From: a virus
Length of the DNA: 64,000 nucleotides
Strand: one strand, 5' to 3'
Virus record (IMG/VR): IMGVR_UViG_3300010354_000051
Span: 1 to 64,000 of that record
The position numbers and the translations under genes were made by a program. Positions within the stretch are counted from its first letter, which is position 1; each line of letters opens with the position of its first letter. Below are positions 6,197-57,666 of this stretch, piece by piece. The notes below the pieces were generated by a model. It had not been told where the DNA came from. It searched no databases and worked only from the letters and a program-made list of their open reading frames with translations.

Positions 6197-6352
6197 TTAC
6201 CTTTCAACGCTCCAGCCTTCAGGCACTTCGATATTAAGCTTGCGCTCTTGGCTAGAAAATACCGGTTCGGTAAGGTCGCTAACTTCTTTCTCCTGCTTCA
6301 AGGGTTGAATAATTCCCTCTCCGCCTGCTCTGGCCTGGTCAATGTTCATCAT
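6197..6352 (-). CDS. 51-aa microprotein ending in IEVPEGWSVER (below the ORF-track cut-off)
   Basis: Hand translation: MMNIDQARAGGEGIIQPLKQEKEVSDLTEPVFSSQERKLNIEVPEGWSVER*. It starts 4 nt after the upstream stop and fills the gap. Confidence 0.7.
   Translation of the reverse strand: MMNIDQARAGGEGIIQPLKQEKEVSDLTEPVFSSQERKLNIEVPEGWSVER
6201..6208 (-). promoter_or_regulatory. Candidate late promoter GTTGAAAG-N6-AG
   Basis: 23 nt upstream of the ATG at 6177. Confidence 0.75.
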
Positions 6353-6356
6353 GGTG

Positions 6357-6791
6357 TTAAAGTCCGAGTACGTCATTAATCAGCTCGTCGCTGATTTCTT
6401 TGCCCAGTCCCTCATTGAGCTTGGCAATTGTTCTCTTCTGCTCATTATGGCAGACTTTTGTTATATCGGCCAGCAGTCCTATGACCGATGACCGATCCCA
6501 TTCAGCAATCTCTGCCTTGTCAGACAAAACTTGGAACCGTTCCAGAATCTCCTCAAGAATAACCAGGCTTGTTTCCCTAATCGCTATCCAATCTTCTCTG
6601 GCCTCTTCATCATCTTCCACCTCTTCCTGAAACTTGTGACTTTGTTCTACTACCCGTATTAAATTCTTACCAACATTTGCTATAGACCTCGGGCCTATTT
6701 TCTCTAGCTCTATAGCCTGAAGCTGGGTAATTATCATACCTCGGGTATCTTTCCCAAACTGGCTGAAATCTCGGACGGTGGAAAGCTTCAT
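6357..6791 (-). CDS. Hypothetical helical protein
   Basis: 144-aa ORF co-oriented with its neighbours, with the promoter motif upstream. Confidence 0.7.
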   Translation of the reverse strand: MKLSTVRDFSQFGKDTRGMIITQLQAIELEKIGPRSIANVGKNLIRVVEQSHKFQEEVEDDEEAREDWIAIRETSLVILEEILERFQVLSDKAEIAEWDRSSVIGLLADITKVCHNEQKRTIAKLNEGLGKEISDELINDVLGL

Positions 6792-6800
6792 GATTTAAGG

Positions 6801-6808
6801 CTTTCAAC
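6801..6808 (-). promoter_or_regulatory. Candidate late promoter GTTGAAAG
   Basis: 9 nt upstream of the ATG at 6791. It has A at +7 but not G at +8. Confidence 0.6.
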
Positions 6809-10300: not shown

Positions 10301-10408
10301 TTTCAACCCCGAGACCAGGAATTTATTATCAAGCGTCGATGAGAACTTCTTGAAGTCTGATAGCGCTCTGGCTGTATTAGCTGTTACGTTAAGTTGTAGA
10401 TTAGCCAT
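7328..10408 (-). CDS. Tail tape measure protein
   Basis: 1026 aa, Ala/Gly-rich and helical, with hydrophobic GAGMGMAFGPQGALIGAGIGA segments and a C-terminal VVNDGEFVIP. It sits between the tube-initiator and gp25 genes. Confidence 0.7.
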   Translation of the reverse strand: MANLQLNVTANTARALSDFKKFSSTLDNKFLVSGLKLDVVRNALGQINREFQKSIGEQGLASAASLRSAQNQASLLTQTFKGFAAESALAINRDIGTALNSLAVRAGGTMKDVQKVISATPFISTRISTDLKDQLTKGMMAFQRDARRAGLGDNFAGIARQFLSGQAMGRDMINSDNPLAQFLGSEIMKRSGGQTTIYDPKARSEILAQIVGDKEVQKQLRDMAKQTYGYRIILEDLNTQLFNTEKGVFGALRKVIDRTGKSTTIFDEVYKLTDKVFGPNGAFRALFKSISEVFKVGDPLRPFIDAVQFVTKKFGELAKFFRSEGFLSFLGGVKDVFDRVVNIGKNIFETFSKAINEVVSGGFSSAQIKEDIVSVGESVRQYIKSFGEKIRDWDETEATDFSAGIIGTLATEVGKTTVVVIKELLMTLIDKVPTIVTAILPEVNKGINSILTEAFGTVGGKVVKFILGFVPGIGPLARASAVGDVTGGGGNMFSALAMGAGSLLGPAALFGIAKLGARFGTSRGRSQTYRGAMRRVAGAEERIGRDLFLDDDFSPVTNFVGRFRQYLSRERERRPAAPTFTGYTMPTDPPIAPHTRLGVINARSSVLAGIGPYTAPSSTLFQNRYGPINQQTSMFNLSGYRGSSVINRQTTMFKPLTDSELFDLYAKEAMDKINAKKEMENNQRRITADRAIRQRNRSLIKGFGDKLYQQRGGQKSYLDLVNNANEINFPDNEIHGFSVADRVASSRYSKVLERYRRRYGLMGRLSRAIRRPGAGRWAAGSIASTFAINSLSQASDAAQESGGGMGALGSLANGALQGAGMGMAFGPQGALIGAGIGAVFSAATLLMDKGIRDSIGKFLSDLGSGFARTAESFGKGIVGLFRGLIEGTINTIRSIPGVNGISGLLSSLSKFQLPHFNEGKNFAGPALGLEARMSGRRPMVVNDGEFVIPSNGFATLSTLVSQNIKNSQPAQGTAPAQISFYLNLNYQALTSNPDEIVKALKQPVIQIIDQAWKESQSAKILRPKNA

Positions 10409-12246
10409 TAGTTCGCCTCCCTGAACTTACCATCCTTTTCACAAATAAGGACTTTATTCGTGCATGGGTTTTTCCAACGGTCTTGATTTTTGAGCTTTAC
10501 CCCAGACAAGCTGCACAAACTCCCGGCTTTTATCGCGCAGAGCTTTTGTCTTTTCTTCTTGGTCGTATATTCTTTCTCGTTCTGCTGGGACTGTTTGCAC
10601 TTCTGCGAGTCTTGAATGTTTTTACAGGCTGCTATGGCTTTGAATGTCGCCTCTATTAGGTCAGAATATGCTTGTTTGACCCCGTCTAATGAGAACACTT
10701 GAAGTCGAGCACTTATACGTTTCTCCATATCTGCTACGCTCCACCCAGCCAACCTGTCAGTAAACTCCTTCCCAAACAACTCTGAACCTTTTATGTAGTA
10801 TTCTTTATACATTTTGAGCCTTAAGCCTATAGCGGATTTAAAGTACCTCGTATAATCATAAATACCCCCCAAATTTATAAACAAAATACCGTTTTTATCA
10901 CCCTCTAGGGTTTTAGATAGCTTCTCAAAGTTCTTTCTAATCAACCCCATTTCTTTGCACTTAACATACATCTCTGTACGGTTAAAGGATGGTTTACCCC
11001 CTCCACCTCCTTCTTCATTACCCTTAGAATTTTCTCCCTCCTCCACTTTTCTTTGTTCGGGAGTTGTGCTTCTGGCAGGCAGAGCCGGGTCATTCACAAC
11101 CGGTTGCCTACCCGGTCTAGTAATATCTGCAAACCCGTCATTAATTGTCCACTCAGGAACTTGTTCTAATTCAAATGATACCTCGGCATTTACTAATACG
11201 CCGTGGTCCCATGACTGCTCTCTGACCCGGATATTTTGTATAACACAAGGGCCAAATACCCTTTTCCCCCATACGAATTCGAGAACGGGCGGGCCATCGG
11301 CACCATTCTCCCCGTCCCTGGCCATAAACAAATCCTGTAAGCCTTTTTCCAAACTTTCCACACGCTTGCCAAACGTATAGCCATGCAATAGCACTTTGCC
11401 AAAGACCAGTTTTCTGTTCTTATTGCTACGCCAGGATAAAGGCTGACCGCTGTTGGCCGGATCGGATACGCCCCAGGTCTCAGCCCGGTTATAATCCGGG
11501 CCGGATTCTAGCTGAAGTTCCTCAGGGTTGAATAGAAATTGCCAGGCCGCATCGGTTATGGGGGCGGTAGGAGTAGCTGATTCGACTAGGCCGGACGGAT
11601 TAGCAGAGAAAACCGCACCGCCTAGCAGTTTTTCAAAAAAGTTCTGTGGCCGAGAAGGCTGGGCAGAGGGCGAAGGTGCAAGAGCTGGCTTGGTAATATA
11701 AGTATTGGTAGGTACGGAAGTAGCCCCTTTAGGAGGAGGATTGAGTTGTTGTGTAGTACTGACTGTAGCAATACTCCAGTCTACATTACTATCCCATTTA
11801 ATCTTATCTGGCTCCCAAGTCGTGTCATATTTCCCAGCCGCTACACCGCTCCGTATCTGATCCAGCTCTACAACCACACCTTTTCCGTACAGCTCTTCTG
11901 ATATAGAGTCGAATTGGGAGCGAGGGACGGCTTGTTCTGAAGCCTTCTGCTCGACTTTTACTCTTTGCTCGACACCGTTCCTACTCCAGTATCGTATATA
12001 AGCTGTGGTTGCTGACATGCCTCCAACTGTCCCGTCTACGAACGAGATGTTGTCCAGCTTGTCCAGAACGCTAAAGGTAGCACCGCGCACATGCGGCGTG
12101 TAAACTGGCGAATCGGAGTTGCCTGGGGCGGTGGATTGGGCCGGTTTATTCTGCTGAGTAGGTTGTTGCTTAGCTATAGGTGTAGTGGCTGGCCTAGAAA
12201 CTGCCCCGGTCTTGTCTATAAGATCGCTACGTTGAAAGCCAGCCAC
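10408..12246 (-). CDS. Baseplate / tail-tube initiator (CIS-tube, gpU/gp48-like domain)
   Basis: Central WQFLFNPEEL..GPPVLEFVWG..GPCVIQNIRVRE..AEVSFELEQ pattern. Confidence 0.65.
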   Translation of the reverse strand: MAGFQRSDLIDKTGAVSRPATTPIAKQQPTQQNKPAQSTAPGNSDSPVYTPHVRGATFSVLDKLDNISFVDGTVGGMSATTAYIRYWSRNGVEQRVKVEQKASEQAVPRSQFDSISEELYGKGVVVELDQIRSGVAAGKYDTTWEPDKIKWDSNVDWSIATVSTTQQLNPPPKGATSVPTNTYITKPALAPSPSAQPSRPQNFFEKLLGGAVFSANPSGLVESATPTAPITDAAWQFLFNPEELQLESGPDYNRAETWGVSDPANSGQPLSWRSNKNRKLVFGKVLLHGYTFGKRVESLEKGLQDLFMARDGENGADGPPVLEFVWGKRVFGPCVIQNIRVREQSWDHGVLVNAEVSFELEQVPEWTINDGFADITRPGRQPVVNDPALPARSTTPEQRKVEEGENSKGNEEGGGGGKPSFNRTEMYVKCKEMGLIRKNFEKLSKTLEGDKNGILFINLGGIYDYTRYFKSAIGLRLKMYKEYYIKGSELFGKEFTDRLAGWSVADMEKRISARLQVFSLDGVKQAYSDLIEATFKAIAACKNIQDSQKCKQSQQNEKEYTTKKKRQKLCAIKAGSLCSLSGVKLKNQDRWKNPCTNKVLICEKDGKFREAN

Positions 12247-12270
12247 TACACTTAATTACTATCTAACCTG

Positions 12271-12278
12271 CTTTCAAC
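12271..12278 (-). promoter_or_regulatory. Candidate late promoter GTTGAAAG-N6-AG
   Basis: 24 nt upstream of the GTG at 12246. Confidence 0.75.
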
Positions 12279-12283
12279 TCGAT

Positions 12284-13267
12284 TTAGACAGGCGGCTCGG
12301 AATGCTCGAAGCTCCAAGCTATGGCATTAGAGACAACCTCTTCGGCATTTTTATCCCAGTCAGCGAAGTGCGGATTGTTGTTAATCCGCTCCAGCACCCA
12401 TTTCTTTACCACGTTCCCTACTGTCTCCGGCATTCTTGCTATTCTGCTGGTCTTTCTCCAGACACACTCATACCTGCTACCTCCTTTCGAGCCATCGAAA
12501 GACTCAATCTCCCTCAATATCCCCAATATCTTCCTCTTTACAAACTCTCTCTTGCCCGGAGTAAGCTTGAGCCAGATCTTTCTCTGATCCTCTATCGACC
12601 CCCAATCCGGATCGTGTTCGCGTGGGACAGATTCTCTCGTCACAATGTACTTCTCCGCTTGTATCGAATCAGAAATCTTCTGAAGCGTGGCCAGCTCAGT
12701 CAGGCAATTCGAGTCGAATCGAATCACCGACTCTTTGGTCGAGCCGAAATACAACCTGGCCACATCGACACAGGCCGTATCAGCCTGCAAGGCGTGAGTC
12801 ACTGCCACCGAATACAGTTTTGCCAAATTTAAATTATTTAAATTATTTTCTAGAAATAAAATTCCTCGGAATTTGGGAAAGGACTCAGTGCTGGAGAAAG
12901 AGTGGTGGAGGATGTTGAAGTTTAGGCCGATCGAGGCAGCTCTGGCTACAATCTCATCCGCCGGCTCCCCGTTGTCAAAATCAATTCCGAGGACTTGGCA
13001 GCTCTCAAATAACGCCTCGATTCGGCGTCTCCTGCGCCAATCCGGGCAAGTATTGAAGACGTAAGGGGACCATGTCCGTCCAGATGTAATAATCCGGGCT
13101 AGACTTTTCGGTGTGACTTCTTGAATATCGGTGCCTAATCTGGCCCCGAGAACTCGAACTTCTGTCCGAGGCACACCATACTTATCAACAAGATTGCCGT
13201 ACTGAAGCTTGCTGCTAGGTTTACGGTCCCAGCATTCGTGATCGAGAGTAATGGTCGCGGTAGGCAT
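12284..13267 (-). CDS. AEP-superfamily primase (stand-alone)
   Basis: GIDFDNG (DxD), HHSFSS..PKFRGIL and DTACVDVARLYFG; adjacent to the helicase. Confidence 0.6.
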   Translation of the reverse strand: MPTATITLDHECWDRKPSSKLQYGNLVDKYGVPRTEVRVLGARLGTDIQEVTPKSLARIITSGRTWSPYVFNTCPDWRRRRRIEALFESCQVLGIDFDNGEPADEIVARAASIGLNFNILHHSFSSTESFPKFRGILFLENNLNNLNLAKLYSVAVTHALQADTACVDVARLYFGSTKESVIRFDSNCLTELATLQKISDSIQAEKYIVTRESVPREHDPDWGSIEDQRKIWLKLTPGKREFVKRKILGILREIESFDGSKGGSRYECVWRKTSRIARMPETVGNVVKKWVLERINNNPHFADWDKNAEEVVSNAIAWSFEHSEPPV

Positions 13268-13281
13268 TGTCAGTTCTCCGT

Positions 13282-16346: not shown

Positions 16347-16370
16347 TTCAGGGCGGTATTTGCCCTTATT

Positions 16371-17062: not shown

Positions 17063-17073
17063 GGCTAGATGTG

Positions 17074-17598
17074 CTACTTAGCTTTCAACCCTTTTGCGAC
17101 TGCTGATGCTATGTGGTAAAGGGGGAGGTTGGTAGAGAGTTGCGGGGATACTTTTTCAACAAATTCGGGGATTTTCTCCGGCTCGGGCTTTACTTTATCG
17201 AATACTTTCAGGCTACGGGCAACCCGGTCCTCCAAATCTACACTCAGCTTACCACTCAGCTCGATCTCTTTAGACTGTGCAATTTCTGGCGACCACTTAG
17301 TGGTTATGTAACGGCTCAGAACTTTGACTTCAGCCGCACTCAGCTTATTGTCCCTAACAGATTGGAGTATGACTCCAATAATCACCCTAATCTGCGACTC
17401 ATTGTACCATCTGGACTGACCATGCTTGAGCCAGAAGGCATCTATTGCATTAAATGCGTCGTAGACTAGTTCGGTGTTAAGAAGAGTGTTTCGGTTTAGC
17501 AAATGCTTGTTGATGAGATTTGCAATGGCGATATAGGCTTTTTCTGTCAGAGTTCTTCTTGCCAAAAGCCCGAATGTGAAATTGAATGGAGTGGCCAT
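17074..17598 (-). CDS. Hypothetical helical protein
   Basis: 174-aa ORF with the promoter motif 19 nt upstream. Confidence 0.7.
   Translation of the reverse strand: MATPFNFTFGLLARRTLTEKAYIAIANLINKHLLNRNTLLNTELVYDAFNAIDAFWLKHGQSRWYNESQIRVIIGVILQSVRDNKLSAAEVKVLSRYITTKWSPEIAQSKEIELSGKLSVDLEDRVARSLKVFDKVKPEPEKIPEFVEKVSPQLSTNLPLYHIASAVAKGLKAK
17082..17089 (-). promoter_or_regulatory. Candidate late promoter GTTGAAAG-N6-AG
   Basis: 19 nt upstream of the ATG at 17062. Confidence 0.7.
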
Positions 17599-17609
17599 AA
17601 TTACCCTTT

Positions 17610-17777
17610 CTAGCCGGCTTTCAACTTCTCCCCTAAACCCGCACAGAATTTACATTCGACTACTTCGTCAGGGTGAACAATTCCTGTTCCCGGTTTTTGC
17701 TGGATAAGGAAAAAACCCCTACCGTTACAGTAGGGGCATTTATTATCCTTATAGTCGGCTATAAGGACTTGCTTCAT
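17610..17777 (-). CDS. 55-aa DnaJ-type zinc-finger microprotein (missed by the ORF track)
   Basis: Hand translation: MKQVLIADYKDNKCPYCNGRGFFLIQQKPGTGIVHPDEVVECKFCAGLGEKLKAG*. Contains two CxxCxGxG repeats and starts 3 nt after the dUTPase stop. Confidence 0.8.
   Translation of the reverse strand: MKQVLIADYKDNKCPYCNGRGFFLIQQKPGTGIVHPDEVVECKFCAGLGEKLKAG
17618..17625 (-). promoter_or_regulatory. Candidate late promoter GTTGAAAG-N6-AG
   Basis: 19 nt upstream of the ATG at 17598. Confidence 0.75.
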
Positions 17778-17780
17778 TGG

Positions 17781-18419: not shown

Positions 18420-18455
18420 GGTCGTTCTGTAGCAGTTCTAGCCTAGCAAAAACGG

Positions 18456-21972: not shown

Positions 21973-21973
21973 T

Positions 21974-23904: not shown

Positions 23905-23912
23905 CTTTCAAC
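23905..23912 (-). promoter_or_regulatory. Candidate late promoter GTTGAAAG-N6-AG
   Basis: 23 nt upstream of the ATG at 23881. Confidence 0.75.
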
Positions 23913-30510: not shown

Positions 30511-30518
30511 CTTTCAAC
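30511..30518 (-). promoter_or_regulatory. Candidate late promoter GTTGAAAG-N6-AG
   Basis: 23 nt upstream of the tail-fibre ATG at 30487. Confidence 0.75.
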
Positions 30519-31053: not shown

Positions 31054-31061
31054 CTTTCAAC
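31054..31061 (-). promoter_or_regulatory. Candidate late promoter GTTGAAAG-N6-AG
   Basis: 25 nt upstream of the ATG at 31028. Confidence 0.7.
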
Positions 31062-31372: not shown

Positions 31373-32494
31373 TTGAATCTGTCCCTCAGCCCTCTTGAAG
31401 ATCAGATAAATTATGCCGAAGAGGCCAGATCTCTGGATTTAGATAGTCTGGACCGGTACGAACTACTGAAAGTTGCCAATAGCTTCCGGGTTGTTATTAT
31501 ACTTTATTCGGAAAGGTTATCTAATTTGGCCACTAGACTGAGCGAAAAGGATAGCGAAATAGAAAGATTAAAAGAGGAGAATAAAAATCTGAGAGACAGA
31601 ATAAGCAAACTTGAAATACCCGACTTCATACCTAAAGAGCAGAAGATACAGGAGTGGCTAAAGGGCAGAGAGATAGAGTACGAGAGGGAGAGGATTAATA
31701 TGGAGAACAGTAAAATATTGGCTAGCGGAGATGTAGCAGTTAGACTGGGTGAAGTGCTAAAAGATAACAAATACGCTCCGCATGCTATTAATAGCGTGTT
31801 GAAAAAAACTCTCGTCGCTGCGGGCGAAGAGGTTAAGTCGGCAGTCAATACTGTACTTGAAGATCGTATTTCATCGGCTTACCAGCTTGGGTTTACATGG
31901 CAAACCCGCTCTTCTAAAAGGCCTTCTAGAGAGGCTACTTGTGTCAAGTTGTTGAGCAAGTGGGAGGCTGAGTATCAGATCGGCAAAGAGTACAACATTA
32001 ATTTCTTACCCGATCCGTCTGCTATCGCAGAAAGCGGGGATGGGGCAGTCTGTGCAGTGATAAATATGATTGTTGAGGCTCTGGGGGGCGAATTGGACCT
32101 GGGCATAGGGAAAAATAACTTCAACCGGCTGCAAAAAGCAATCCGAATTTACAAATCTTCACCGGTTAAGGTTCTTTCTCCTGCTCAGCCAGTGGGGGAT
32201 ACTCCCGTCGAGCTGTGCAACAAAGTATTCGGTCCGGGTCTCCCCGAGGAGGAGAAGGTGAAAGTCATCGCGACATTTGCAGAGAGACTGAGCAGGTATA
32301 AGTCGGCTAGTGAAATACCACCCGAGCTGATTAGAAAATCCTGCACTTTGTCCCGTCTGCCCGTCTTTTTCACTTGGGACCAGGCCCACAAGGACGCTCA
32401 CTCCCGCCTAAAAGCCCTGAAAAACGGCCATTACGACCATGAGTACAAGCGGTTGCTGGAAACCCTGGTCGTTGAAAGTAAAACAGAGGGGTAA
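31346..32494 (+). CDS. Hypothetical protein with an N-terminal coiled coil
   Basis: 382-aa ORF; heptad-like LSEKDSEIERLKEENKNLRDRISKLE. First gene of the plus-strand block. Confidence 0.75.
   Translation: MVENTLRPPLNLSLSPLEDQINYAEEARSLDLDSLDRYELLKVANSFRVVIILYSERLSNLATRLSEKDSEIERLKEENKNLRDRISKLEIPDFIPKEQKIQEWLKGREIEYERERINMENSKILASGDVAVRLGEVLKDNKYAPHAINSVLKKTLVAAGEEVKSAVNTVLEDRISSAYQLGFTWQTRSSKRPSREATCVKLLSKWEAEYQIGKEYNINFLPDPSAIAESGDGAVCAVINMIVEALGGELDLGIGKNNFNRLQKAIRIYKSSPVKVLSPAQPVGDTPVELCNKVFGPGLPEEEKVKVIATFAERLSRYKSASEIPPELIRKSCTLSRLPVFFTWDQAHKDAHSRLKALKNGHYDHEYKRLLETLVVESKTEG
32471..32478 (+). promoter_or_regulatory. Candidate late promoter GTTGAAAG-N6-AG
   Basis: 22 nt upstream of the GTG at 32501; heads the baseplate cluster. 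Confidence 0.75.
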
Positions 32495-36673: not shown

Positions 36674-39612
36674 TGTCCTCTTTTTTCAGCCAGTTAAATG
36701 CTATCAGCGAGTCTGTAGATCGTACTTTAGAAGTACTCGGTGTGCCTTTTGCCGACCCGTTTAACGAAGAGGGGGTAATTTGTGACGTATCCGATCCTAA
36801 GTACTTGGGCAGAGTTAAAGTAACTACGAAGGACGGACTTATCTCGCCCTGGGTTCCCGTGGCAGGCTCAAGTAGGGGGAGACTAAGTGCTAAGTATATT
36901 GGCACGAGAGTAATGGTATCTAAAATAGGTGGCAGATCTGAGAGGTTGTATATTACGGGTATATTGAGTGGGGATAAAGATATTGGTGTGATAGGTACTC
37001 CTGTTCAGCTACCAATAATCGATGAGAGTGTAGCAGTTTGGTCCGGATCTAGTGATACCGGGATGAAGTGTAATGAGGGTAATGAGGCCAGGGTCTACGT
37101 TCTCAGTAATGAGATGGGACAGGATGCAGTTATTTGTCTCCGCAGGAATAATTTGCAAGACGGCGGGGGTTCTGTCTGGGCGTGGAAATCTCTGACTAAC
37201 GGCTTATGGGTAGAAAAAGGGTTTAATCCTGGCAACGCTGATACCATGTCTGTTACCCAAGCTCAGGAGAATAATCCTGGCATACCGAAATGCGATCAGT
37301 CCATGCTAGGGGAAAGGCATGACTTTACAGAGGATAGGGGGTTCCGAACCATATCCATGCAATGCAGGAGAGATGAGAACGGCGATTATTCGTGGATACC
37401 TGACGGTTCTAGCCCGGTGTTTTTCCGAACCACTCTACCATCTTGTACGGAGAAAATACATGGCATGTCTGCTACTGTAGACGACGGAAATAATTCTGAA
37501 TATATGATATGCCAGAGATACCAAGGTAAAATGAAATGGGTGCGTCAGGGGAGAAGAATACCACATAAATTTTACTCGAAAGAAAAACCACTAAACCGGA
37601 TTGAGTTTCTGAGCAAGTTTAATCCGATCCCCGAATTACAGACTGAAGTAAGTGTTTCAGGGTATGATTGGGTAGCCGATCCGGCTGTTAGCCAGGCCGT
37701 CTTTGACGAACTTTATAAAAATGTGCCGATTACTGGTACGGATCCTGAGTTAAAAATTCTACTGAAAGCGGCTAACTTAATACCCGATTCTGCTTTTGAC
37801 GAGGCCAGCGCCTTAAAACGAATTGCTAATGCGGCTATTGAGGCTAAGACAGGATTGCCCGTACAGGAAATATTTGATACGGTCAGGGCCGAACTCGACC
37901 AGTCAAACAGTTTGACTCCGGCCACTTCAAAACTTCTGACAGGTGTTGGTAAAGCAGCAGATGTTTTGATTAACGGCGAAGGCGAAGATGCCCTGATTGA
38001 GGTAGGCAGAGAAGCCCTGGTCGGGTCTATATCCTCTCTGAGCCCTCAAGCCGGATCGGTAATGACAGGTTTAATGACCGGAGGTGTTTGGGGGGCGGTA
38101 GATAGCGCGGTTGCAATCGGACTGGATAAATTGCCAGACGAGGTGAACAGATATGTCGCCCCGGTAGTAGATATTGCCAAAGACCTGCTGAAAGGCCAAT
38201 CGATAGGATTTTCTAACATAGTTAGTGCGGCGGTTAATGGTGGCTTGTCAAACAAAGTCTCATCGTTAGTTAACTCGGCTATAGGGGCGAATGTGGTTTC
38301 TCCTTCTACAGTTACTTCTGTACTGGAAGGTCTGGGCTCGGGGTCTTACGGAGATGTGTCAAAACTGTTCTCTGGACTTAGCAACTTGTCCGCTATAGAT
38401 AAACTTCCTGCTCCGGCCAATTCTCTGGCCAAATCAGCTACTTCTGCCCTAGGCCTAATAGGTCAAGCCGGCTCCGGAGTTAATTTCTTTGGCAATGCTG
38501 GACTAGGCTTGGATTCTGTTCAGAGCTTGCTCGGTAGTAATTCTAATCCTGCTGCGATCATAGCTTCGGGAGTGTCCGGATTGTCCGGGTTGCTTAGAGG
38601 TGGGCTGGGCGGAGACGATTGCCCTTGTGGTGAGAAATGTAGAAAGACTTCCCATGGTAAGAGTAAAGACGGGACAGATTTACTAGGTCCGTGCGGGTCG
38701 ATGAGTTCTAATACGGCTAACAGCACTACACCTAAAGGTATCCCCACACCTAATAACACTGGCCCGATTGCCAAAGAACTCGGCCTAAAGGATACTAAAC
38801 TCGGAGAGAGCTTATTGCCAGCCAATAATCTTGACCTATCGGATATAATAAACAAAGTTCCGAGAGTTAAGGACATGGCAGAGACAATCTACCAGAGTCG
38901 TTTTGCCGATCAGACAGAGAGAGAACTCGAACTAGCATCTAGCTTTGAGGCTGTAGAAAAGTCACTAAAAATAGCCGATAATAACATAACCAGAGTCGAG
39001 TCAATTGAACGCAAGTTAATAGACTCGTTGTATAATTTGCTGACTTCAATTGTTTACAATAAGAAAGTCGGCTCGGTGTCTGTAATGACAGAGGTCTTGG
39101 ATGCAGTCCGCACCAATTCCCGAGCTATAAAAGACCTGTATGAGTTTACCAAGGCATTAAATGCTGTTAAGAGAGGAGGTGACGCTGGGGTCAGGGTCAC
39201 TGAAGCCCTAGACAGCGCATTTAACAATATCCCAGCTCTGCTTAACCTGTCAAAAATCAACAGAGAAAACGCTCTTAAGATACTTAATGGCGGGATTATT
39301 CCGGCCGATAGAGAGTGGAGGGGGTTGAATCCAGACTTGTCAAGGGGAATTAAGCTAGGCAGTTATTCCCCCACTCTCCCTACTCCGTTTGATAACGAGC
39401 AGACTTTATTCAATCAGACCAGGGTCCTGTCCGAGTCATTAGAGTCCAAGCTAACCGACAACGACCCTGAGCAACAAAGCATATTCGACTTGTCTCTTTC
39501 TTCAAATCAAGTTGAAAGTCTTAAAGAATCGAGTGATTTTCTATACGGGTCGGACAAATCTCTCTACGACGTAGTTTCTGACCGAAACAAGAAAACTAAT
39601 TGCAATGAATAA
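36673..39612 (+). CDS. Central spike protein (gpV/gp5 OB-fold) with a long C-terminal extension
   Basis: GVICDVSDPKYLGRVKV..SPWVPV..G.RV.V OB-fold signature at the N-terminus. Confidence 0.7.
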   Translation: MSSFFSQLNAISESVDRTLEVLGVPFADPFNEEGVICDVSDPKYLGRVKVTTKDGLISPWVPVAGSSRGRLSAKYIGTRVMVSKIGGRSERLYITGILSGDKDIGVIGTPVQLPIIDESVAVWSGSSDTGMKCNEGNEARVYVLSNEMGQDAVICLRRNNLQDGGGSVWAWKSLTNGLWVEKGFNPGNADTMSVTQAQENNPGIPKCDQSMLGERHDFTEDRGFRTISMQCRRDENGDYSWIPDGSSPVFFRTTLPSCTEKIHGMSATVDDGNNSEYMICQRYQGKMKWVRQGRRIPHKFYSKEKPLNRIEFLSKFNPIPELQTEVSVSGYDWVADPAVSQAVFDELYKNVPITGTDPELKILLKAANLIPDSAFDEASALKRIANAAIEAKTGLPVQEIFDTVRAELDQSNSLTPATSKLLTGVGKAADVLINGEGEDALIEVGREALVGSISSLSPQAGSVMTGLMTGGVWGAVDSAVAIGLDKLPDEVNRYVAPVVDIAKDLLKGQSIGFSNIVSAAVNGGLSNKVSSLVNSAIGANVVSPSTVTSVLEGLGSGSYGDVSKLFSGLSNLSAIDKLPAPANSLAKSATSALGLIGQAGSGVNFFGNAGLGLDSVQSLLGSNSNPAAIIASGVSGLSGLLRGGLGGDDCPCGEKCRKTSHGKSKDGTDLLGPCGSMSSNTANSTTPKGIPTPNNTGPIAKELGLKDTKLGESLLPANNLDLSDIINKVPRVKDMAETIYQSRFADQTERELELASSFEAVEKSLKIADNNITRVESIERKLIDSLYNLLTSIVYNKKVGSVSVMTEVLDAVRTNSRAIKDLYEFTKALNAVKRGGDAGVRVTEALDSAFNNIPALLNLSKINRENALKILNGGIIPADREWRGLNPDLSRGIKLGSYSPTLPTPFDNEQTLFNQTRVLSESLESKLTDNDPEQQSIFDLSLSSNQVESLKESSDFLYGSDKSLYDVVSDRNKKTNCNE
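39511..39518 (+). promoter_or_regulatory. Candidate late promoter GTTGAAAG-N6-AG for terL
   Basis: Full extended motif inside the 3' end of the spike gene, 86 nt upstream of terL. Confidence 0.55.
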
Positions 39613-41193: not shown

Positions 41194-41550
41194 TTGCTAT
41201 ATTTATATTGCTTACTTAAGGCAATTATGTCCTCAGAGGAAAATCAATTTAAGTACCGGGCGGTAATTTTTACCACGCCGGGTTGCTCGGCCTGTGCAGC
41301 TATGAAACCAATCTGGGCGCAGGTTGCAGGGGAAATGGCCGAAGAATACCCTCAGCACAGGGTTGGTTGGGGGGAATACAACGTTCTGGAGGATGACTGG
41401 GAGTTCCTGGAGTCGTTAACTCCTGAGTCCGGTCAAGGCACTCCTGAAATTGCCATTTTTGATGAAGATGGCCAGCTTGTCGGCTTCAATGGGGACGGGA
41501 TTATGCCTGCCTCTCAATTAAAAGACTTCATTCTAACATCAATAGGTTGA
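41194..41550 (+). CDS. Thioredoxin-fold protein (CSAC)
   Basis: IFTTPGCSACAAMKPIW and GTP (cis-Pro) motif. True start may be MSSEE. Confidence 0.75.
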   Translation: MLYLYCLLKAIMSSEENQFKYRAVIFTTPGCSACAAMKPIWAQVAGEMAEEYPQHRVGWGEYNVLEDDWEFLESLTPESGQGTPEIAIFDEDGQLVGFNGDGIMPASQLKDFILTSIG

Positions 41551-42233
41551 GCATGATTAAAAACAAAAACCGGAGAAAATCCGAGTACGAGATTACTAGG
41601 GACAAGCACATCAAAGAGTGTATGTGGAAGGCTACCCATGCCGCACGCAAAGTCTCATCTTTCTCCGGAGTACCTTTTGACGAGCTGAGATCGGTGGCTT
41701 TGGAGGCCATGGTCAAATTGTATGACAAATGGGATCCGGAAAAGGCCAACTTCAGCACTTGGCTTAACCGCTCCCTCACCTTTCAACTCCTGAACTATTT
41801 GAGAGATTCCTCTCGAATGGTAAAAATGCCTCGGATATATGCCGATACATATATGCGGATTAGGAAAGTGATTTCTCGAACTCCTGAAATCAGCAACAAA
41901 GAGTTGTCAGAAATGACCGGTATTGACGAACTGGTTATTCAAGAGACCCGGAGTGCGTTTCAAGTTGTCTATCAGGAAATCAATGAGGATACGGAAATAC
42001 CGGCCAATCCCGAGTCTACTGAAGAAGACTCTTTGTCGGCCATGTTTGAGGACTACAAAGATGTCTTGGACAGGCTATCTTCTCTGCCCACTGAAGATTA
42101 CAATTTCCTCACTGATGTTTACATACACCATCGGGCTCAGTCCACTCTGTTTCGAAAGTATGCCGGGATTAATAAACCTGAGCATATACAGGAAAGAGCA
42201 GACAGGTTGATACAGGCAGTGTTAAATGGCTAA
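41547..42233 (+). CDS. Phage RNA polymerase sigma factor (SigF/SigB-like, group 3)
   Basis: Region 2: DELRSVALEAMVKLYDKWDPEKANFSTW..LLNYLRDSSRMVKMPR. Region 3 HTH: ELSEMTGI. Confidence 0.85.
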   Translation: MSMIKNKNRRKSEYEITRDKHIKECMWKATHAARKVSSFSGVPFDELRSVALEAMVKLYDKWDPEKANFSTWLNRSLTFQLLNYLRDSSRMVKMPRIYADTYMRIRKVISRTPEISNKELSEMTGIDELVIQETRSAFQVVYQEINEDTEIPANPESTEEDSLSAMFEDYKDVLDRLSSLPTEDYNFLTDVYIHHRAQSTLFRKYAGINKPEHIQERADRLIQAVLNG

Positions 42234-47223: not shown

Positions 47224-47231
47224 CTTTCAAC
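47224..47231 (-). promoter_or_regulatory. Possible late promoter GTTGAAAG
   Basis: 44 nt upstream of the ATG at 47179; lacks the +7/+8 AG. Confidence 0.4.
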
Positions 47232-47593: not shown

Positions 47594-47601
47594 CTTTCAA
47601 C
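47594..47601 (-). promoter_or_regulatory. Candidate late promoter GTTGAAAG-N6-AG
   Basis: 24 nt upstream of the ATG at 47569. Confidence 0.75.
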
Positions 47602-47638: not shown

Positions 47639-48205
47639 GTGGAAATTATTGTTGTTCTGGGCGCAGATCGAGTGGGTAAATCTACCCTTATCAGAAAAAC
47701 AGAAGCTTTGTGTAAAAGTGCCGCAGTCAGTTCTCACATTTGGCATTTTTCAGAAGTCAAGCCCTGGCACCATTCTCCAATCGACCAGTTTTTGAAAAAA
47801 TTCGATGAGATGAAAGCAATTAGACAAGATTTACAACCGCAGTATTTGCTTATCGATCGCTTTGTCTCTGATACACTTTTCTACGAACCTTATAGAAACA
47901 GATTTGAGAAAGTAGATCCCTCCTGGGCCAGGTCAGTTGAGTCTGGATTGCTAGAGCTGAGTAGTTCTGTTGAGTATGTACTTCTCGAGCACGGTTGGGA
48001 CGAGGAGATGGTAAAGAGGCATACTGAGGAGATAAAGCGAGAAGGTAAGAATGCGGTTAGCAAATACTGGATAGACCTGAATCTAGAGGTAAGGAAAAAA
48101 GAGCATTTTGAATACTACAAACACACTGGCTGGTATCTGTCGAAGTCGACAAATATCCCCTGCCGGTATATCGGACCGGATAGTTCAACCCTGTTGAAAG
48201 TTTAG
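47639..48205 (+). CDS. P-loop nucleotide kinase (thymidylate/dNMP kinase-like)
   Basis: IIVVLGADRVGKST Walker A and LLIDRF..S..FY motif. Confidence 0.7.
   Translation: MEIIVVLGADRVGKSTLIRKTEALCKSAAVSSHIWHFSEVKPWHHSPIDQFLKKFDEMKAIRQDLQPQYLLIDRFVSDTLFYEPYRNRFEKVDPSWARSVESGLLELSSSVEYVLLEHGWDEEMVKRHTEEIKREGKNAVSKYWIDLNLEVRKKEHFEYYKHTGWYLSKSTNIPCRYIGPDSSTLLKV
48193..48200 (+). promoter_or_regulatory. Candidate late promoter GTTGAAAG-N6-AG heading the phoH leader
   Basis: Full motif, 19 nt upstream of a uORF ATG at 48220. Confidence 0.65.
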
Positions 48206-49038: not shown

Positions 49039-49237
49039 ATTTATTTCTTAGGACGGCCTCAGCTCCGGAGGGGAAAAACACTCCTCCGGTAAACATCCAA
49101 CGCTCTAGACAAGCGTTGGGGTTTTTATCTCCCCAGGCCCAGTTAGGTATTTCACACATTGAGAGGAAAGCCAGGCAGAAAATTAACTGACCGGCCAGAA
49201 ATACATACGACTCTATCGTGTTGAGTTTTTTCTCCAT
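49004..49237 (-). CDS. Small membrane protein
   Basis: 77 aa with hydrophobic segments. The promoter motif is placed so that its +7 A is the A of the ATG. Confidence 0.6.
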   Translation of the reverse strand: MEKKLNTIESYVFLAGQLIFCLAFLSMCEIPNWAWGDKNPNACLERWMFTGGVFFPSGAEAVLRNKSISGTGQNKKV

Positions 49238-49243
49238 ACCCGG

Positions 49244-49251
49244 CTTTCAAC
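49244..49251 (-). promoter_or_regulatory. Candidate late promoter GTTGAAAG (leaderless transcript predicted)
   Basis: 6 nt upstream of the ATG at 49237. Confidence 0.65.
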
Positions 49252-49260: not shown

Positions 49261-49268
49261 GTTGAAGG
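49261..49268 (+). promoter_or_regulatory. Candidate late promoter variant GTTGAAGG-N6-AG
   Basis: 20 nt upstream of the ATG at 49289; back-to-back with the 49244 site. Confidence 0.65.
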
Positions 49269-52200: not shown

Positions 52201-52423
52201 CAATACCCTAACCCTGCTGCAGAAGTTAGAATTTCAGTCATACGATAAGACCTCCGTTCAAACTGTCTCTAATGTAACCCTGCAAACATCATTCTATACA
52301 CATAAAATGAAGATTGAATTGCCTATTGATACGGACGTATACGATCAAGACGTTACTGAGTTTTTCGGCAATGGGGAATCAGTTAAGGACTCGTTTTACC
52401 TATTTGTTAGCTTAAATGGCTAG
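49289..52423 (+). CDS. Large virion structural protein with a PA14-like domain
   Basis: 1044 aa; LSDLTNRSQALNNIL N-terminal motif and WGVRWDGYI..YLFQVQT (PA14-like). Confidence 0.6.
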   Translation: MATKFDTGLTLSGQTLIESLTKKINKREIDKKYIGLQRSLALSDLTNRSQALNNILSGISNLETSERNQYGSIFNSSDWNVTGDFIQQGINKNFLSQLNFSSSLQGQVSVTPRIRIQDQITSLNSFYGEGSFPGYHNGLDAQFYKPPQPAHKGFIKFDFNDLTGSVTVSELIGTDGVTTLSPSSLLNGKSQIVVILDSYTASSGEKISLTGVEVNLKLVSPTTWSVSQGLSKLIAVKNSLIGSDVFSGLAFRFSQEYTLLNPPPWFAQSPANAAVEAGADDLNPATSHRLLVESNGSYVPVKNKGYWYTKSAIFDRWSANEQGSITLVQTDYNKVFVLDSNMEWKEPPTELKSEVGNWGVRWDGYIKIVPDNYLFQVQTNVLVKIDMAIGANSSWVNVFDSTSDPVLSDVESGYVSSQSFDGSTISEQFKYYTSAVDWSAYVPITIRMYYGQADRAFPNILSPQQPNLFIKTTTLTTPVAYSDANYEITIAGSDVSGWTITSPALADIISALQNTQISVTYTITGTASGSVLPVPVLINMTTDGTTVSSISQLGLDPGSYVLKLTPYRSDSYIRNAKPLWRGRLASPSPDHQNYSDMTDGSFSPDLLKTSFDMRPEWWKITRGHPYNIALPPSRTNTPLDGFLTNKFKPVLSSEATGVGLYGSGDGVTFSSRPNIICGEARYSTSDPLGSNYTGIRLLSNSFGEGGRLIVNALPLNNSLYNSPDLLGQNDLGGSPNHLTAGSTNLISYIARLYLRETASPADLYNKYYLIANPTLATASDDPTAWGLPPFSSPLWLSPITVFVVSVADDLLFTTNVKSLVSPLTLSVEKKTVSGFDLLCFTTTQSSILVGGSEKVDFASKYVNFYTESNIAFQYGRVDTGDSLSFADCLKITYVNNELQPLDSEVPRPPSDRVTPFGFDRPQFTKDLCYPPYVINNPLLSDIAVEDTALYSAPAGNYDVFWGDNTKAALGGNTLTLLQKLEFQSYDKTSVQTVSNVTLQTSFYTHKMKIELPIDTDVYDQDVTEFFGNGESVKDSFYLFVSLNG

Positions 52424-54043: not shown

Positions 54044-54051
54044 TGTTCTTA

Positions 54052-57000
54052 CTAAGCTAGTTTTAGAATTTGGTTAGACTGGTTTCTCCAGCATGTTCCA
54101 GCTCCTACCGTACCTGGACATGAAGGCAAGAGTTGCCAGCCTAGTTCTGTAATCGAAGCGTTGCGGGTTGTTACGTTGGTGTAAGTTATATTCACCGAAG
54201 AAGATGTTGTACTTGGAGTGACATAAGTGAAGCCAAAAGTGATAGAAATCCCGAACAAGTTTTTATAGCTCACCCCTAGCGGGTCTTCGCTAATAGATTG
54301 AGTTTGCTTAATTTGTGTTTTGTAATATGTCCCCGAGACCAGCGATCCGGCAACTTGATAAGTTTGCGGCCCGATTAAAGTATAAGTAAATGTAGTAGCG
54401 CCAGTTATTTGATTAGTTGTCTGCCTCTCAGAGTAGACTTGGAAATTCTCATTCCGGAACAGGGATATGGTTTCCTGTCTACCTGCAGTGATTACGGTTG
54501 GGAAAATATCCTGCTGGGTATAATTGGAGTACCGGTCGGCCGATGTTAAGTTATTGCCATTTAGTCTGACCTGGCAATTTCTATACACCCTGAGCTTATC
54601 AATCTCGACAATCTCTTGAACAATTGTCCTTATTGTTGATACCGATAAGGCGTTATTAGTCAAATCGACTACAATCCTTCTATTACTCCCCTTAAAGATT
54701 CTGGCAAAAGTACCAGTGGCATAAGAAGATATTGCGTTTTGCTTAAGATTTATTAAAGTTATAAGGTTGAGGTTAGTTCTTATACTAAAAGTACCGGATA
54801 GCCTACAATTCTCTGCACTGAACGAGGTTAGTTTAGTGTAGCCAAGGCGGAACCAGTTCGATATGTCAATTGACGATCTGGTAAAGTACAAAGTTGATGG
54901 TAAAGTGCCAGGTATATCCGCACTTATAATAATCTCCGTGCTGGTTACTGACATTACTTTGGCTAATTCTGGGCCAGTCTCACTCGCTCTTACCGAATCA
55001 TAAACCATCACTTTTTGGTTAAGGGCGGTAGGCCCGGTTAGAGAGTATACGGCATCGTCGGGTGAAGAGGCCGGTACTTTTCTGGTGATTGAGAGACCGG
55101 TTAAGGCAGTGCTGGGTTGTCTGCTAAGAACGCAAGCTCCTCTTAGCGATTGGACTCCCCAATCAGACCGGTAAACACTAGGCAAAGAGTTATCTAACTT
55201 TACAGAAACTACAGGGGTCTCTGTAACACCTTCGAAAGAGGGCAATAATGCTCCGCCTCCACTCGGATTACAGTTATCTGCAGTTATCCTAGTTATATCT
55301 CTAGAGAAATACTGGTTAGATGTTGTAATGGACAGCGGGCTAATATCATAAAATCCTGACGAGTTTATGGTTATCGCCACATCTTTTCTCTCGGTATCTG
55401 GGAAATACCGAGAAGGGAAAGTTGGGAAACGGCCGGTGAAGTTAGATTGCCTGACATCTATCGTATCTAAATAATGTAAGTTAATAAGGTCATTTTTTCT
55501 AAACCGGTAAGGGTTTGAAGAGAACCCAAGTGATAGGGTTTTTAAGTTGTGTTGGTTAACTGGGCCTCGGGCCGGAGCAAAAGTCACCGGTAGGAAGAAG
55601 TCTACTCCGTTGTCAGTTACGGGGAGTAGGTTGTCGCAAGCTCCCAAGTCTAATGTAACTAAACTACCAGTTTCAGTTGCCGGATCTGTACCTAAAGACG
55701 GAACTTTACCTTCTGTAAAAGAGCTGCCAAGGGATAGAGTTGTTAACTTAGGTGCTTTTATGGAGGACGATAACAGGTCGAACTTCACCCCTCCTCTTGA
55801 GGCCGGTGCTTCAAGTGTGACAAGAGAATCCCATTGGCCGTTTTGCAGATTTACAAAAACAGAAGTTCGGGTGAGTGAAATGCTGACCGAGCTGCTTCTC
55901 CATGCTGACCAGTCTTCACCTACCGGGTTGTTTATGTATCCGGTCGATTCAAAAAGTGAAGCACCGCTTCTTGTAGTGCCTATGTTAAAAGACACTATAC
56001 GGTATTTTGATATATGGCCGAAGTTTGTCGGGTCTGTCGAAGTACCTATTTGTGTAATATCTCCTTTGCCGCCTGAGTTATAAATATCGTAACTTATAAG
56101 AGACCCGTTATTGTTAATTTTGGGTAGATTTCCATACAAGAAGCGGGAAAACGGACGGGTCAAGTCTCTATTAGACCATGTCAACACTCTAAGGTTAGGA
56201 AATACATCATCGAGTCGTGGAGAATACCCTTTAAACCTGTCCCCTAGTACCAGCTCTTCCATCGAGCTAAATTGTCTATAATCGACATTAGCTACCCGAC
56301 CAGACTCATTTAAGACATACTTTCTAAACAGTGCGTCAGACCAGTCGTTACCTGCCTCGTTTACAAAAATTCCTTTTCTGGGTACGGTTAGATAGCTGAC
56401 CGCAGTGCATTGAGGGGTAGAGGCAGAGGGTAAAAGAGTTGGGTCTCTGTAGTCAAACCAGCCCATAACTCCCGACTTCCAGACATCCCCTGACTTGCTC
56501 AAGTCTAGCCTTCTAAGTTTATTTTTTAAAGTCTTGAGCCAGAGGGGTAGTATAGTCATCGACCCGCCGACCATTGTAAAACTTTCTAGGTTATCATATC
56601 CAATCAGGCCCAGGTCTTTTCTATCCTGAGTCTCCCTTATATCTATACCTGAAAACTCAATAGCTTTTACTTTTACCGGATTGACATAGAGGTAGAGGTA
56701 TAGGTCATAGATTGTTTGATAACCTGTTGCTGTAATGTCAATATTTACCGTGTACTGTAAAGATCCGGAAGCCTGAGCTACGGACACCACAGGGAGAAAG
56801 TCGACTGCGGGTGAATTGGGTCTTTTTTGCAGAGGTTGGATCTGGAACCCGTAGAAATACGGGCTGTTCGAGTCGGTGAAAGTGAACTTAATTGTCCCGG
56901 TGGACATTCTGCAAAGCACTTTCAGCGGTGTATTTTTAGTCGAAAGTAGCTTGAGCGGAGTACTAGTCCCGGAGTTGTTGTCGATGTACATGTCCAGAGA

Positions 57001-57639
57001 ATGGCTAGGACTTTCCACTATCTCCGGACGCGGCAATACACTGTTTAGAGGTAGAAAGATTCTATTTACATGAGATCTTCTGCGAACTCTAACACTTCCA
57101 GCATAACTTGCATTCTTAAAATAGCCCAGGTTGACCGGATCTCCTTCCGAGTTAAACAGGCTGTTTCTAGAGGTCGATACCGCTACTAGTTTTCTAACCG
57201 GGTTGCTAAATATCGTGTCCCCTATAGTATTAGTCAGATACTGAGCACCTTCGCACTGAATGGACCCATTGAAAATAATGACGTTTGGGTAGTTTACATA
57301 CGGAGAACCTTCGCCGCCTAGTGGCAGAGACGGGGAATAATAATCCTTTGAATCGTATAAACTAGTCGGAATCTGATACACATATATTTCACTTAACTGC
57401 TGAAGAGCGGGTAGCAGAGTTTTTTCTAACCCAGAACAGAATCGAAAATCCTCTCTATCACTTAACTGCCCACTAAGACCGTACAGCGAGTCCAGAACCT
57501 CCGGGCTCAGCCCCATATTCCTAAGTGCTGTCCTTTTGTCCGACTCAAAAATCTCTGACAGGTTCTGGAACCCGTCTGAAACCAGTCCAATATCCGGACG
57601 AGCTGCTTCTCTAAAAGTAAAAAAGGACTGTTCGGCCAT
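54052..57639 (-). CDS. Leucine-rich-repeat-containing virion/tail protein
   Basis: Many LxxLxLxxN-type units (LRRLDLSKS, LVTLDLGAC, LDTIDVRQSNFTG, LITLINLKQNAI). ATG at 57639 preferred to TTG at 57645. Confidence 0.7.
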   Translation of the reverse strand: MAEQSFFTFREAARPDIGLVSDGFQNLSEIFESDKRTALRNMGLSPEVLDSLYGLSGQLSDREDFRFCSGLEKTLLPALQQLSEIYVYQIPTSLYDSKDYYSPSLPLGGEGSPYVNYPNVIIFNGSIQCEGAQYLTNTIGDTIFSNPVRKLVAVSTSRNSLFNSEGDPVNLGYFKNASYAGSVRVRRRSHVNRIFLPLNSVLPRPEIVESPSHSLDMYIDNNSGTSTPLKLLSTKNTPLKVLCRMSTGTIKFTFTDSNSPYFYGFQIQPLQKRPNSPAVDFLPVVSVAQASGSLQYTVNIDITATGYQTIYDLYLYLYVNPVKVKAIEFSGIDIRETQDRKDLGLIGYDNLESFTMVGGSMTILPLWLKTLKNKLRRLDLSKSGDVWKSGVMGWFDYRDPTLLPSASTPQCTAVSYLTVPRKGIFVNEAGNDWSDALFRKYVLNESGRVANVDYRQFSSMEELVLGDRFKGYSPRLDDVFPNLRVLTWSNRDLTRPFSRFLYGNLPKINNNGSLISYDIYNSGGKGDITQIGTSTDPTNFGHISKYRIVSFNIGTTRSGASLFESTGYINNPVGEDWSAWRSSSVSISLTRTSVFVNLQNGQWDSLVTLEAPASRGGVKFDLLSSSIKAPKLTTLSLGSSFTEGKVPSLGTDPATETGSLVTLDLGACDNLLPVTDNGVDFFLPVTFAPARGPVNQHNLKTLSLGFSSNPYRFRKNDLINLHYLDTIDVRQSNFTGRFPTFPSRYFPDTERKDVAITINSSGFYDISPLSITTSNQYFSRDITRITADNCNPSGGGALLPSFEGVTETPVVSVKLDNSLPSVYRSDWGVQSLRGACVLSRQPSTALTGLSITRKVPASSPDDAVYSLTGPTALNQKVMVYDSVRASETGPELAKVMSVTSTEIIISADIPGTLPSTLYFTRSSIDISNWFRLGYTKLTSFSAENCRLSGTFSIRTNLNLITLINLKQNAISSYATGTFARIFKGSNRRIVVDLTNNALSVSTIRTIVQEIVEIDKLRVYRNCQVRLNGNNLTSADRYSNYTQQDIFPTVITAGRQETISLFRNENFQVYSERQTTNQITGATTFTYTLIGPQTYQVAGSLVSGTYYKTQIKQTQSISEDPLGVSYKNLFGISITFGFTYVTPSTTSSSVNITYTNVTTRNASITELGWQLLPSCPGTVGAGTCWRNQSNQILKLA

Positions 57640-57658
57640 GAGCAACGAATCTATATAG

Positions 57659-57666
57659 CTTTTAAC
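57659..57666 (-). promoter_or_regulatory. Candidate late promoter variant GTTAAAAG-N6-AG
   Basis: 19 nt upstream of the ATG at 57639. Confidence 0.6.

Follow-up and report, generated by a model that had tools for sequence, protein, structure and literature searches.

The first 64,000 nucleotides of a single 118,719-bp virus contig (IMG/VR record IMGVR_UViG_3300010354_000051), hereafter the window, carry the octamer GTTGAAAG repeatedly and mostly just ahead of genes, which raises the question of whether this word is a promoter and, if so, which protein reads it. A first-pass annotation of the window had proposed a new class of phage late promoter recognized by a SigF-like sigma factor that the phage itself encodes. 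The large terminase (TerL) of the contig shares 57% identity with its counterpart in cyanophage S-TIM5 (Aurunvirus) and the sigma factor shares 41% identity with the S-TIM5 protein named 'SigF'. The gene order near the sigma gene also agrees with that of S-TIM5, and of the 127 open reading frames (ORFs) called in the contig, 31 match S-TIM5 genes marked as virion structural or packaging genes in its GenBank record, where they were defined proteomically. Therefore, the phage is an uncultured TIM5-like cyanomyovirus related to S-TIM5. No cultured relative closer than S-TIM5 exists in the phage collection, and when 10 kb of the window were compared by megablast with phage records, no close relative appeared.

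The octamer occurs 16 times in the window, compared with 2.74 ± 1.6 copies expected from dinucleotide shuffles, none of 100 of which reached 16. Over the whole contig 28 copies are present, whereas a third-order Markov model predicts 5.8, and no other enriched 8-mer is as abundant. To score placement, a site was counted when an ORF of 45 codons or more had its first start codon on the same strand 5–35 nt downstream of the octamer. By this measure 20 of the 28 sites in the contig are placed before a co-oriented ORF (random positions, 7.1%; p = 2e-17), as are 10 of the 16 sites in the window alone (p = 1e-8). S-TIM5 has a word of its own, GTTTAAAG, of which 21 of 36 copies are placed likewise (p = 4e-15), and the non-cognate octamer variant showed no such placement in this contig or in S-TIM5. 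Five related contigs carry 12–40 sites each, compared with 2–4 for a reversed control word. Only two of the 28 sites in the contig are oriented against the local gene, one at 12231..12238 on the plus strand and the other at 41780..41787 on the minus strand. We take both to be probably chance copies because each lacks either conservation or parts of the extended signature described below: the exact octamer at 12231 lies antisense in the first codons of the gene at 10408–12246 and is not conserved in S-TIM5, and that at 41780 lies antisense in the sigma gene and has neither the C at +1 nor the TAG of the extended signature.

The extent of the element was examined by aligning the 28 sites of the contig and, separately, sites from relatives. 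The relatives comprise 83 further loci that encode an orthologue of the sigma factor, each taken with flanks of at most 10 kb in both directions, on contigs that span 32–57% guanine plus cytosine (GC); 70 non-identical, promoter-placed sites entered their position table. With the first base 3' of the octamer counted as +1 and the base 5' of it as -1, the 28 sites have C at +1 in 22, T at +6 in 14, G at +8 in 17, and a purine at +7 in every case (A in 22). The signal is sharper in the 70 sites of the relatives, where C occupies -1 in 48, C occupies +1 in 69, T occupies +6 in 61, +7 is A in 52 and G in 18 and never a pyrimidine, G occupies +8 in 43 and A occupies +9 in 47. Their start codons lie at a median distance of 25 nt, mostly 19–28 nt. 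The short word can therefore be written as GTTGAAAGC with TAG five bases later, in the form GTTGAAAGC-N4-TAG, and the full element as c-GTTGAAAG-C-N4-T-A/G-G-A. In the 28 sites of the contig, neither the stretch between -30 and -1 nor that between +10 and +40 shows conservation, and no -35 box appeared in either set, the C at -1 of the relatives being the only conserved position between -30 and -1. The position tables therefore contain no conserved upstream box, in line with the single-box architecture that had been proposed at first.

The first-pass annotation had listed 15 exact sites in the window, all of which are real and carry the right coordinates and strands, and had overlooked the sixteenth, the antisense copy at 41780. 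Recounting its 15 sites gave the same figures for A at +7 (14 of 15), for AG at +7/+8 (11 of 15) and for distance (11 sites 6–25 nt from a co-oriented start, nine of these at 19–25 nt), and the A at +7 of the site at 49244 is indeed that of an ATG. Its two one-mismatch variants at 49261 (GTTGAAGG) and 57659 (GTTAAAAG) retain C at +1 and TAG at +6 to +8; beyond the window, further one-mismatch octamers that keep the downstream signature stand at 69450, 72772, 72788, 89286, 93726 and 118523. The exact count and the positional enrichment that it had suggested as a check, run here on the whole contig, confirmed the observation. Its description of the element as an octamer with a downstream AG was right as far as it went, but the element is longer than claimed and includes a nearly invariant C at +1 and a T at +6.

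Several other origins of the word were considered and set aside. A TAnnnT-type -10 element starting at the TAG would need T at its sixth position (+11), which is found in only 3 of 70 sites. Classical sigma70 promoters (TTGACA-N17-TATAAT) do not account for the sites, which show no -35 signal, and sigma70-like matches in 12000–31500 number 18, compared with 17.8 in shuffles. A conserved peptide or stop codon might produce such a word, since the TGA of the octamer or the TAG at +6 to +8 serves as the stop of the upstream gene at 6801, 88124 and 17082, but the frames differ and most sites are intergenic. The octamer also resembles the tail, or tag, of repeats from clustered regularly interspaced short palindromic repeat (CRISPR) arrays; the mRNA would carry the tag in sense or would lack the octamer, and no link was seen. 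Among other words enriched over the whole contig, GG(G)ATATT(G) is 4–5-fold over-represented, with 16–18 copies of its 8-mers (in the window, for example, at 9293, 12516 and 28313). All but one of the copies listed fall within called ORFs, on both strands and with no shared context; it was rejected as a regulatory word and its enrichment is taken to be compositional or coding.

The genes that carry the motif are not a random sample. A site stands directly upstream of 15 of the 31 virion-orthologue genes but of none of 8 genes for replication or nucleotide metabolism (Fisher p = 0.015), and a site directly upstream is lacking in primase, nrdA, nrdB and dut, as had been noticed at first reading, and in the flap endonuclease gene. 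Sites also precede 16 of 88 other ORFs, and those that were scanned contain no Pfam domain. The same bias is present in S-TIM5, where 26 of the 36 copies of GTTTAAAG lie no more than 50 nt upstream of an annotated gene and 17 of these 26 stand immediately before virion genes, which make up 47 of the roughly 207 genes in the background (23%; p = 4e-6). At least 13 sites are found at orthologous gene starts in the two phages, whose proteins are only 25–60% identical. These shared starts include those of portal, sheath, several baseplate and virion proteins, phoH, and the gene after the capsid gene, where the terminator is conserved as well. The class is thus centered on morphogenesis genes, and its timing is presumably late.

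At a distance of 7 nt from the -10 element, bacterial RNA polymerase prefers to start at a purine (+1) that follows a pyrimidine (-1), and its core enzyme has a pocket for G at +2. The purine found at +7 of the element in all 28 sites of the contig and all 70 sites of the relatives, preceded by T, is consistent with a start site 7 nt past a -10-like box. All sites fit an arrangement in which a box in the -10 region ends 7 nt before the start and T-A-G falls at -1, +1 and +2 relative to it. At 49244, where the start codon begins at exactly +7, the transcript may be leaderless.

The proposed reader is the phage sigma factor, a protein of 228 amino acids (aa) encoded at 41547..42233 on the plus strand, within a conserved run of genes for TerL, a thioredoxin-like protein, the sigma factor and another 228-aa protein. 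It matches Pfam Sigma70_r2 (PF04542) with 31.1 bits against a cut-off of 24, and a six-frame search of the contig found a single copy of this domain. A profile search of the PDB with the sigma family aligned it to regions 2–3.1 of cyanobacterial SigA. The AlphaFold2 model of the protein has a pLDDT of 78, and Foldseek aligned about 225 of its 228 residues to SigD, SigB, sigma28 and WhiG with low TM-scores (0.27–0.39) that we attribute to flexible placement of the domains in the model. Pfam region 4 gave no match in the protein. Judged from these alignments and the predicted fold, it appears to be a group-3-like sigma factor with sigma2, sigma3 and sigma4-like parts. The label 'SigF-like' given to it at first holds as a loose description but not as an assignment: the protein scores 33.5 bits against the SigB/F/G model TIGR02980 (cut-off 234) and 26–28 bits against the SigF models NF005514 and NF005644 (cut-offs 372 and 261), and SigF promoters differ. 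Cellular SigF promoters (Synechocystis pilA1) have two boxes, TAGGC at -32 and GGTAA at -12, and SigF autoregulates (PMC2532724). The phage protein resembles cyanobacterial SigF in being a small sigma factor with regions 2–4, in lying within an operon headed by the motif and in the GenBank label of its orthologue, whereas no conserved second box is found on either side of the octamer.

The run of thioredoxin-like, sigma and ~230-aa protein genes is kept in the window (39605–42912) and in three relatives, L018, L021 and L025, on contigs of 32–57% GC; in the window, L018 and L021, but not L025, the run is preceded by terL. The ~230-aa neighbor, which has a weak DUF6390 match, is a candidate partner of the sigma factor. 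A T7-like phage RNA polymerase (PF00940) was not found in the contig, although the control genomes also lacked this family and CheckV estimates the contig to be about 74% complete; nor did the contig yield a beta-subunit domain of RNA polymerase, and the complete annotation of S-TIM5 lists no RNA polymerase. Six proteins of 480–620 aa (P0080, P0095, P0102, P0103, P0106 and P0110) each contain 6–9 matches to the sigma profile, always to profile positions of about 100–165, that is, region 3 and the linker. In L021, a 57%-GC relative of 63.7 kb (Logan contig from SRR25160674), a tyrosine integrase (PF00589) is encoded at 19602–20465, a few kb from the sigma/terminase module, a hint that some TIM5-like phages may be temperate.

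If the sigma factor reads the box, the two would be expected to vary together. This expectation, raised in the first-pass annotation as a check, was examined across the 83 loci, and the fourth base of the octamer follows the sigma clade. In 32 loci the sigma helix reads WLNRS(L/M)T(F/Y)Q, and the placed octamers have G at base 4 (GTTGAAAG) in 71 of 79 cases, with A in 6, T in 1 and C in 1. In the other 51 loci the helix reads WVNR(C/N)LQFH, and T (GTTTAAAG) is found in 54 of 61 placed octamers, with G in 5, A in 1 and C in 1. The GC content of the genomes ranges from the low 40s to about 56% in each of the two groups, and one T-type contig has 32% GC; therefore base composition does not explain the difference at base 4. 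The residues that differ consistently between the groups, 73, 76 and 80, align with residues 431, 434 and 438 of sigma70 in the SigA profile alignment, and the sigma70 helix that contains these three residues reads promoter positions -12/-11. Two more distant sigma clades, with 2–3 candidate sites each, seem to have further variants (CTTTAAAG, GTCTAAAG and TCTAAAG). More tentatively, and with the odds rather against it, the TIM5-like sigma factors might form a natural pair of orthogonal sigma/promoter systems, in which the base equivalent to -11 is G or T instead of the near-universal A and is set by residues 73/76/80 (L/S/Q versus V/C/H) in the region 2.3–2.4 helix.

Taken together, we think it probable, though well short of certain, that the element is a promoter read by the phage sigma factor, with transcription starting at +7 and serving mainly late genes. 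The computational tests of spacing, orientation, terminators, virion genes, conservation and co-variation all favor the single-box promoter tied to the phage sigma factor that was first suggested. In this scheme, host core RNA polymerase would carry the group-3-like sigma factor with its sigma2, sigma3 and sigma4 domains, and the holoenzyme would read the octamer as an extended -10-like box at about -14 to -7 without need of a -35 box. The DNA would then be melted and transcription would start at the purine 7 nt downstream, with T-A-G as -1, +1 and +2, to give leaders of 12–21 nt and one leaderless transcript. The class would serve mainly virion and packaging genes, probably late in infection, and would include the terL-sigma operon itself; since that operon is headed by the motif, positive feedback is implied.

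A number of points weigh against this scheme. No -35 box is seen that would match the sigma4-like domain of the sigma factor. Where nearly all characterized sigma70-family -10 elements have A at -11 and T at -7, the equivalent bases here are G or T and G, respectively. The co-variation is essentially one split between two clades, and another clade-specific factor or differences between hosts would co-vary in the same manner. Within the co-oriented nrd-dut-primase run, the sites at 23905, 17618 and 17082 stand before small ORFs that have no assigned function, and phoH and a speD-like gene also carry sites; therefore 'late only' is not established by position alone, and the class may be not strictly late and possibly broader than the morphogenesis genes. 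The contig is only about 74% complete. Finally, promoter function and the start at +7, together with timing and the role of the sigma factor as reader, are inferred and unproven for TIM5-like phages.

The alternative that survives best is that the promoter is real but has another reader, such as a host alternative sigma factor or an unrecognized phage protein that binds or activates RNA polymerase, and that the phage sigma factor serves other genes. The link to the sigma factor consists of the clade-level co-variation and the lack of another candidate, the sigma4-like domain has no -35 box to match, and many phage ORFs are of unknown function, all of which leave room for such a protein. On the other hand, each motif variant persists over genomes of 32–57% GC and presumably several host genera, which is hard to reconcile with a host sigma factor, and the residues that differ between clades sit in the very helix that reads -12/-11. 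An activator site would in addition need a core promoter within the 19–28 nt before the start codon, where nothing similar is found and only the TAG-purines are conserved. The SigF promoters of cellular cyanobacteria, with TAGGC and GGTAA, are different again (PMC2532724). We therefore regard another reader as unlikely.

The element might instead act in RNA and serve, in the 5' region of a polycistronic mRNA, for processing or translation rather than as a signal to start transcription. The strict co-orientation with the downstream gene, the fairly fixed distance of 19–28 nt to the start codon and the purine-rich run after TAG, which in some sites looks like a Shine-Dalgarno sequence, would suit such a role. 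The surroundings of the sites do not. At 23905 and again at 96586, a strong intrinsic terminator ends a few bases 5' of the octamer; about 90 nt 5' of the octamer at 17618, just after dut, there is another, and the same layout of terminator then octamer is present in S-TIM5 at 41609 and 130598. Divergent gene pairs have back-to-back octamers separated by 9 nt at 49244/49261 and by 24 nt at 67779/67811, and in relatives the gap can be 0 nt, so that the two form the palindrome GCTTTCAAC|GTTGAAAGC. If these octamers were RNA elements, the promoter of each gene would have to sit within the opposite gene. No promoter-like signal was seen upstream of the sites, Rfam families gave no match in the window, inspection by eye showed no conserved partner for RNA pairing (no structure test on the sites was made), and at 49244 the start codon begins at +7. 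A role in RNA is thus very improbable. SigB-type promoters have the -35 word GTTTAA and ECF (extracytoplasmic function)-type promoters TGAAAC. Hardly credible is the idea that the octamer is the -35 box of a SigB-type (GTTTAA-N12-15-GGGTAT) or ECF-type (TGAAAC-N16-CGT) promoter read by sigma4 of the phage sigma factor, for although GTTTAAAG contains GTTTAA and GTTGAAAG resembles TGAAAC, the top Foldseek matches include the S. aureus SigB holoenzyme and a GGGTAA(T) that could pass for a second, SigF/SigB-like -10 box lies 11–12 nt past the octamer at 17618 and 32471, positions +10 to +20 are free of signal in the 28 sites of the contig and the 70 of the relatives, the conserved TAG comes merely 5 nt past the octamer, and a start about 26 nt past it would fall at or beyond most start codons (median 25 nt, range 19–28 nt).

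A single-box promoter read by the phage sigma factor would have partial precedents. T4 late promoters consist of a single 8-bp box in the -10 region, TATAAATA, with no -35 element, and are read by a phage sigma-family protein on host core polymerase (PMC2988020), much like the short -10-region box, the phage-encoded sigma70-family protein and the many copies before virion genes seen here. The two systems are unlike in sequence (GTTGAAAGC...TAG versus TATAAATA), in the reader (gp55 is sigma-like in domain 2 only, whereas the present protein has sigma2, sigma3 and a sigma4-like part) and in lineage, which is TIM5-like (Aurunvirus) and not T4-like; T4 also uses gp33 and the gp45 clamp, and no gp33 or clamp co-activator was seen here, although no search was aimed at them. 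The extended -10 promoter (TGnTATAAT), which needs no -35 box, offers a second comparison. With the start at +7 the octamer would occupy -14 to -7, where G at -14, T at -12 and A at -9/-8 match, and the phage sigma factor keeps region 3.0 with an acidic D100 in the place of sigma70 E458, a residue with a role at the extended -10. In contrast, the A at -11 and T at -7 that sigma70 flips out are replaced by G or T and by G, and C at -6 is nearly invariant (69/70). Phage sigma factors that redirect host polymerase to a phage-specific middle or late consensus include gp28 and gp33/34 of SPO1 and gp36 of phiEco32. They resemble the present system in having a promoter word of their own, but consensus and architecture differ. 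To our knowledge, no such sigma/promoter system has been described for cyanophages of the TIM5-like lineage. Neither the two octamers nor promoters of TIM5-like phages came up in the searchable literature, whose coverage does not extend to the first description of S-TIM5 (PNAS 2012), where they may be mentioned.

The individual sites of the window are as follows. On the minus strand, the site at 6201..6208 has AG at +7/+8 and the ATG of a 660-aa ORF (4195–6177) 23 nt downstream, and at 6801..6808 the TGA is the stop of the upstream gene, with the ATG of the ORF at 6357–6791 9 nt downstream. The site at 12271..12278 (minus) lies 24 nt 5' of the GTG of the virion-protein orthologue at 10408–12246, and S-TIM5 has GTTTAAAG at the orthologous start (146462). 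Three minus-strand sites follow in the nrd-dut-primase run: 17082..17089, 19 nt 5' of an ORF of 150 aa with no Pfam match (16610–17062); 17618..17625, 19 nt 5' of the ORF at 17074–17598, with the terminator-like hairpin at 17737–17715 after dut; and 23905..23912, 23 nt 5' of the ATG at 23881 of a 181-aa ORF and a few bases after a 10-bp GC-rich terminator hairpin (23945–23918) with its T-run. Nearby, nrdA (18456–21428, minus strand, 990 aa) has a C-terminal glutaredoxin domain and is interrupted by an intein that includes an HNH endonuclease; the Pfam matches Intein_splicing and HNH_3 lie between segments of the RNR barrel.

Further along, the minus-strand site at 30511..30518 lies 23 nt 5' of a 1742-aa tail-fibre gene (25259–30487). 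The sites at 31054..31061 (minus) and 32471..32478 (plus) lie 25 nt 5' of the ATG at 31028 of a 169-aa ORF and 22 nt 5' of the baseplate-module gene at 32501–33505, respectively, and the orthologous starts in S-TIM5 have GTTTAAAG (122802 and 122783). In the intergenic gap of about 285 nt between divergent structural operons (31062–31345), an A/T-rich tract (tgtatttttaaaataaaaaataaaagg) is accompanied by a GC-rich hairpin (CCCCCCTAAGTGCTTTTTAGGGGGGG); the gap may hold early promoters or an origin. The site that heads the terL-thioredoxin-sigma run, 39511..39518 on the plus strand, is 86 nt 5' of terL (39605); in relatives this distance is 24 nt. On the minus strand, 47224..47231 lies 44 nt 5' of the virion-protein orthologue at 46457–47179 (orthologous S-TIM5 site, 105196) and 47594..47601 lies 24 nt 5' of the virion-protein orthologue at 47237–47569 (104583). 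The plus-strand site at 48193..48200 stands 94 nt 5' of phoH (48295), with a short ORF and a hairpin between; S-TIM5 has a variant 82 nt before its own phoH, and therefore the long phoH leader is conserved. The minus-strand site at 49244..49251 serves a 77-aa ORF (49004–49237), and back to back with it the one-mismatch site at 49261..49268 (plus) lies 20 nt 5' of a 1044-aa virion-protein orthologue (49289–52423), with an S-TIM5 site at 103116. The other one-mismatch site, 57659..57666 (minus), is 19 nt 5' of the ATG at 57639 in a 1197-aa virion-protein orthologue. In the rest of the contig, the sites at 98356 (plus) and 104820 (minus), which flank the DNA polymerase region, have in common a 16-nt string, ATATTTTAACAAAAAA, just 5' of GTTGAAAG; only these two copies of it occur.

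Should residues 73/76/80 indeed set base 4, a full-length sigma factor with no need of a -35 box would be recognizing its -10 in a compact manner not described before. A single base that switches in step with three residues of the DNA-reading sigma helix is a natural experiment on how sigma region 2 selects melted bases, and compact, -35-independent sigma/promoter pairs may be of use as orthogonal expression parts for cyanobacteria. S-TIM5 on Synechococcus WH8102 provides a cultured system in which the model is directly testable. TIM5-like cyanophages are widespread in the oceans, and nothing on their gene regulation was found in the searchable literature. A defined promoter word would allow unknown genes to be sorted into an expression class and the transcription units of the whole lineage to be mapped, in isolates and metagenomic contigs alike.

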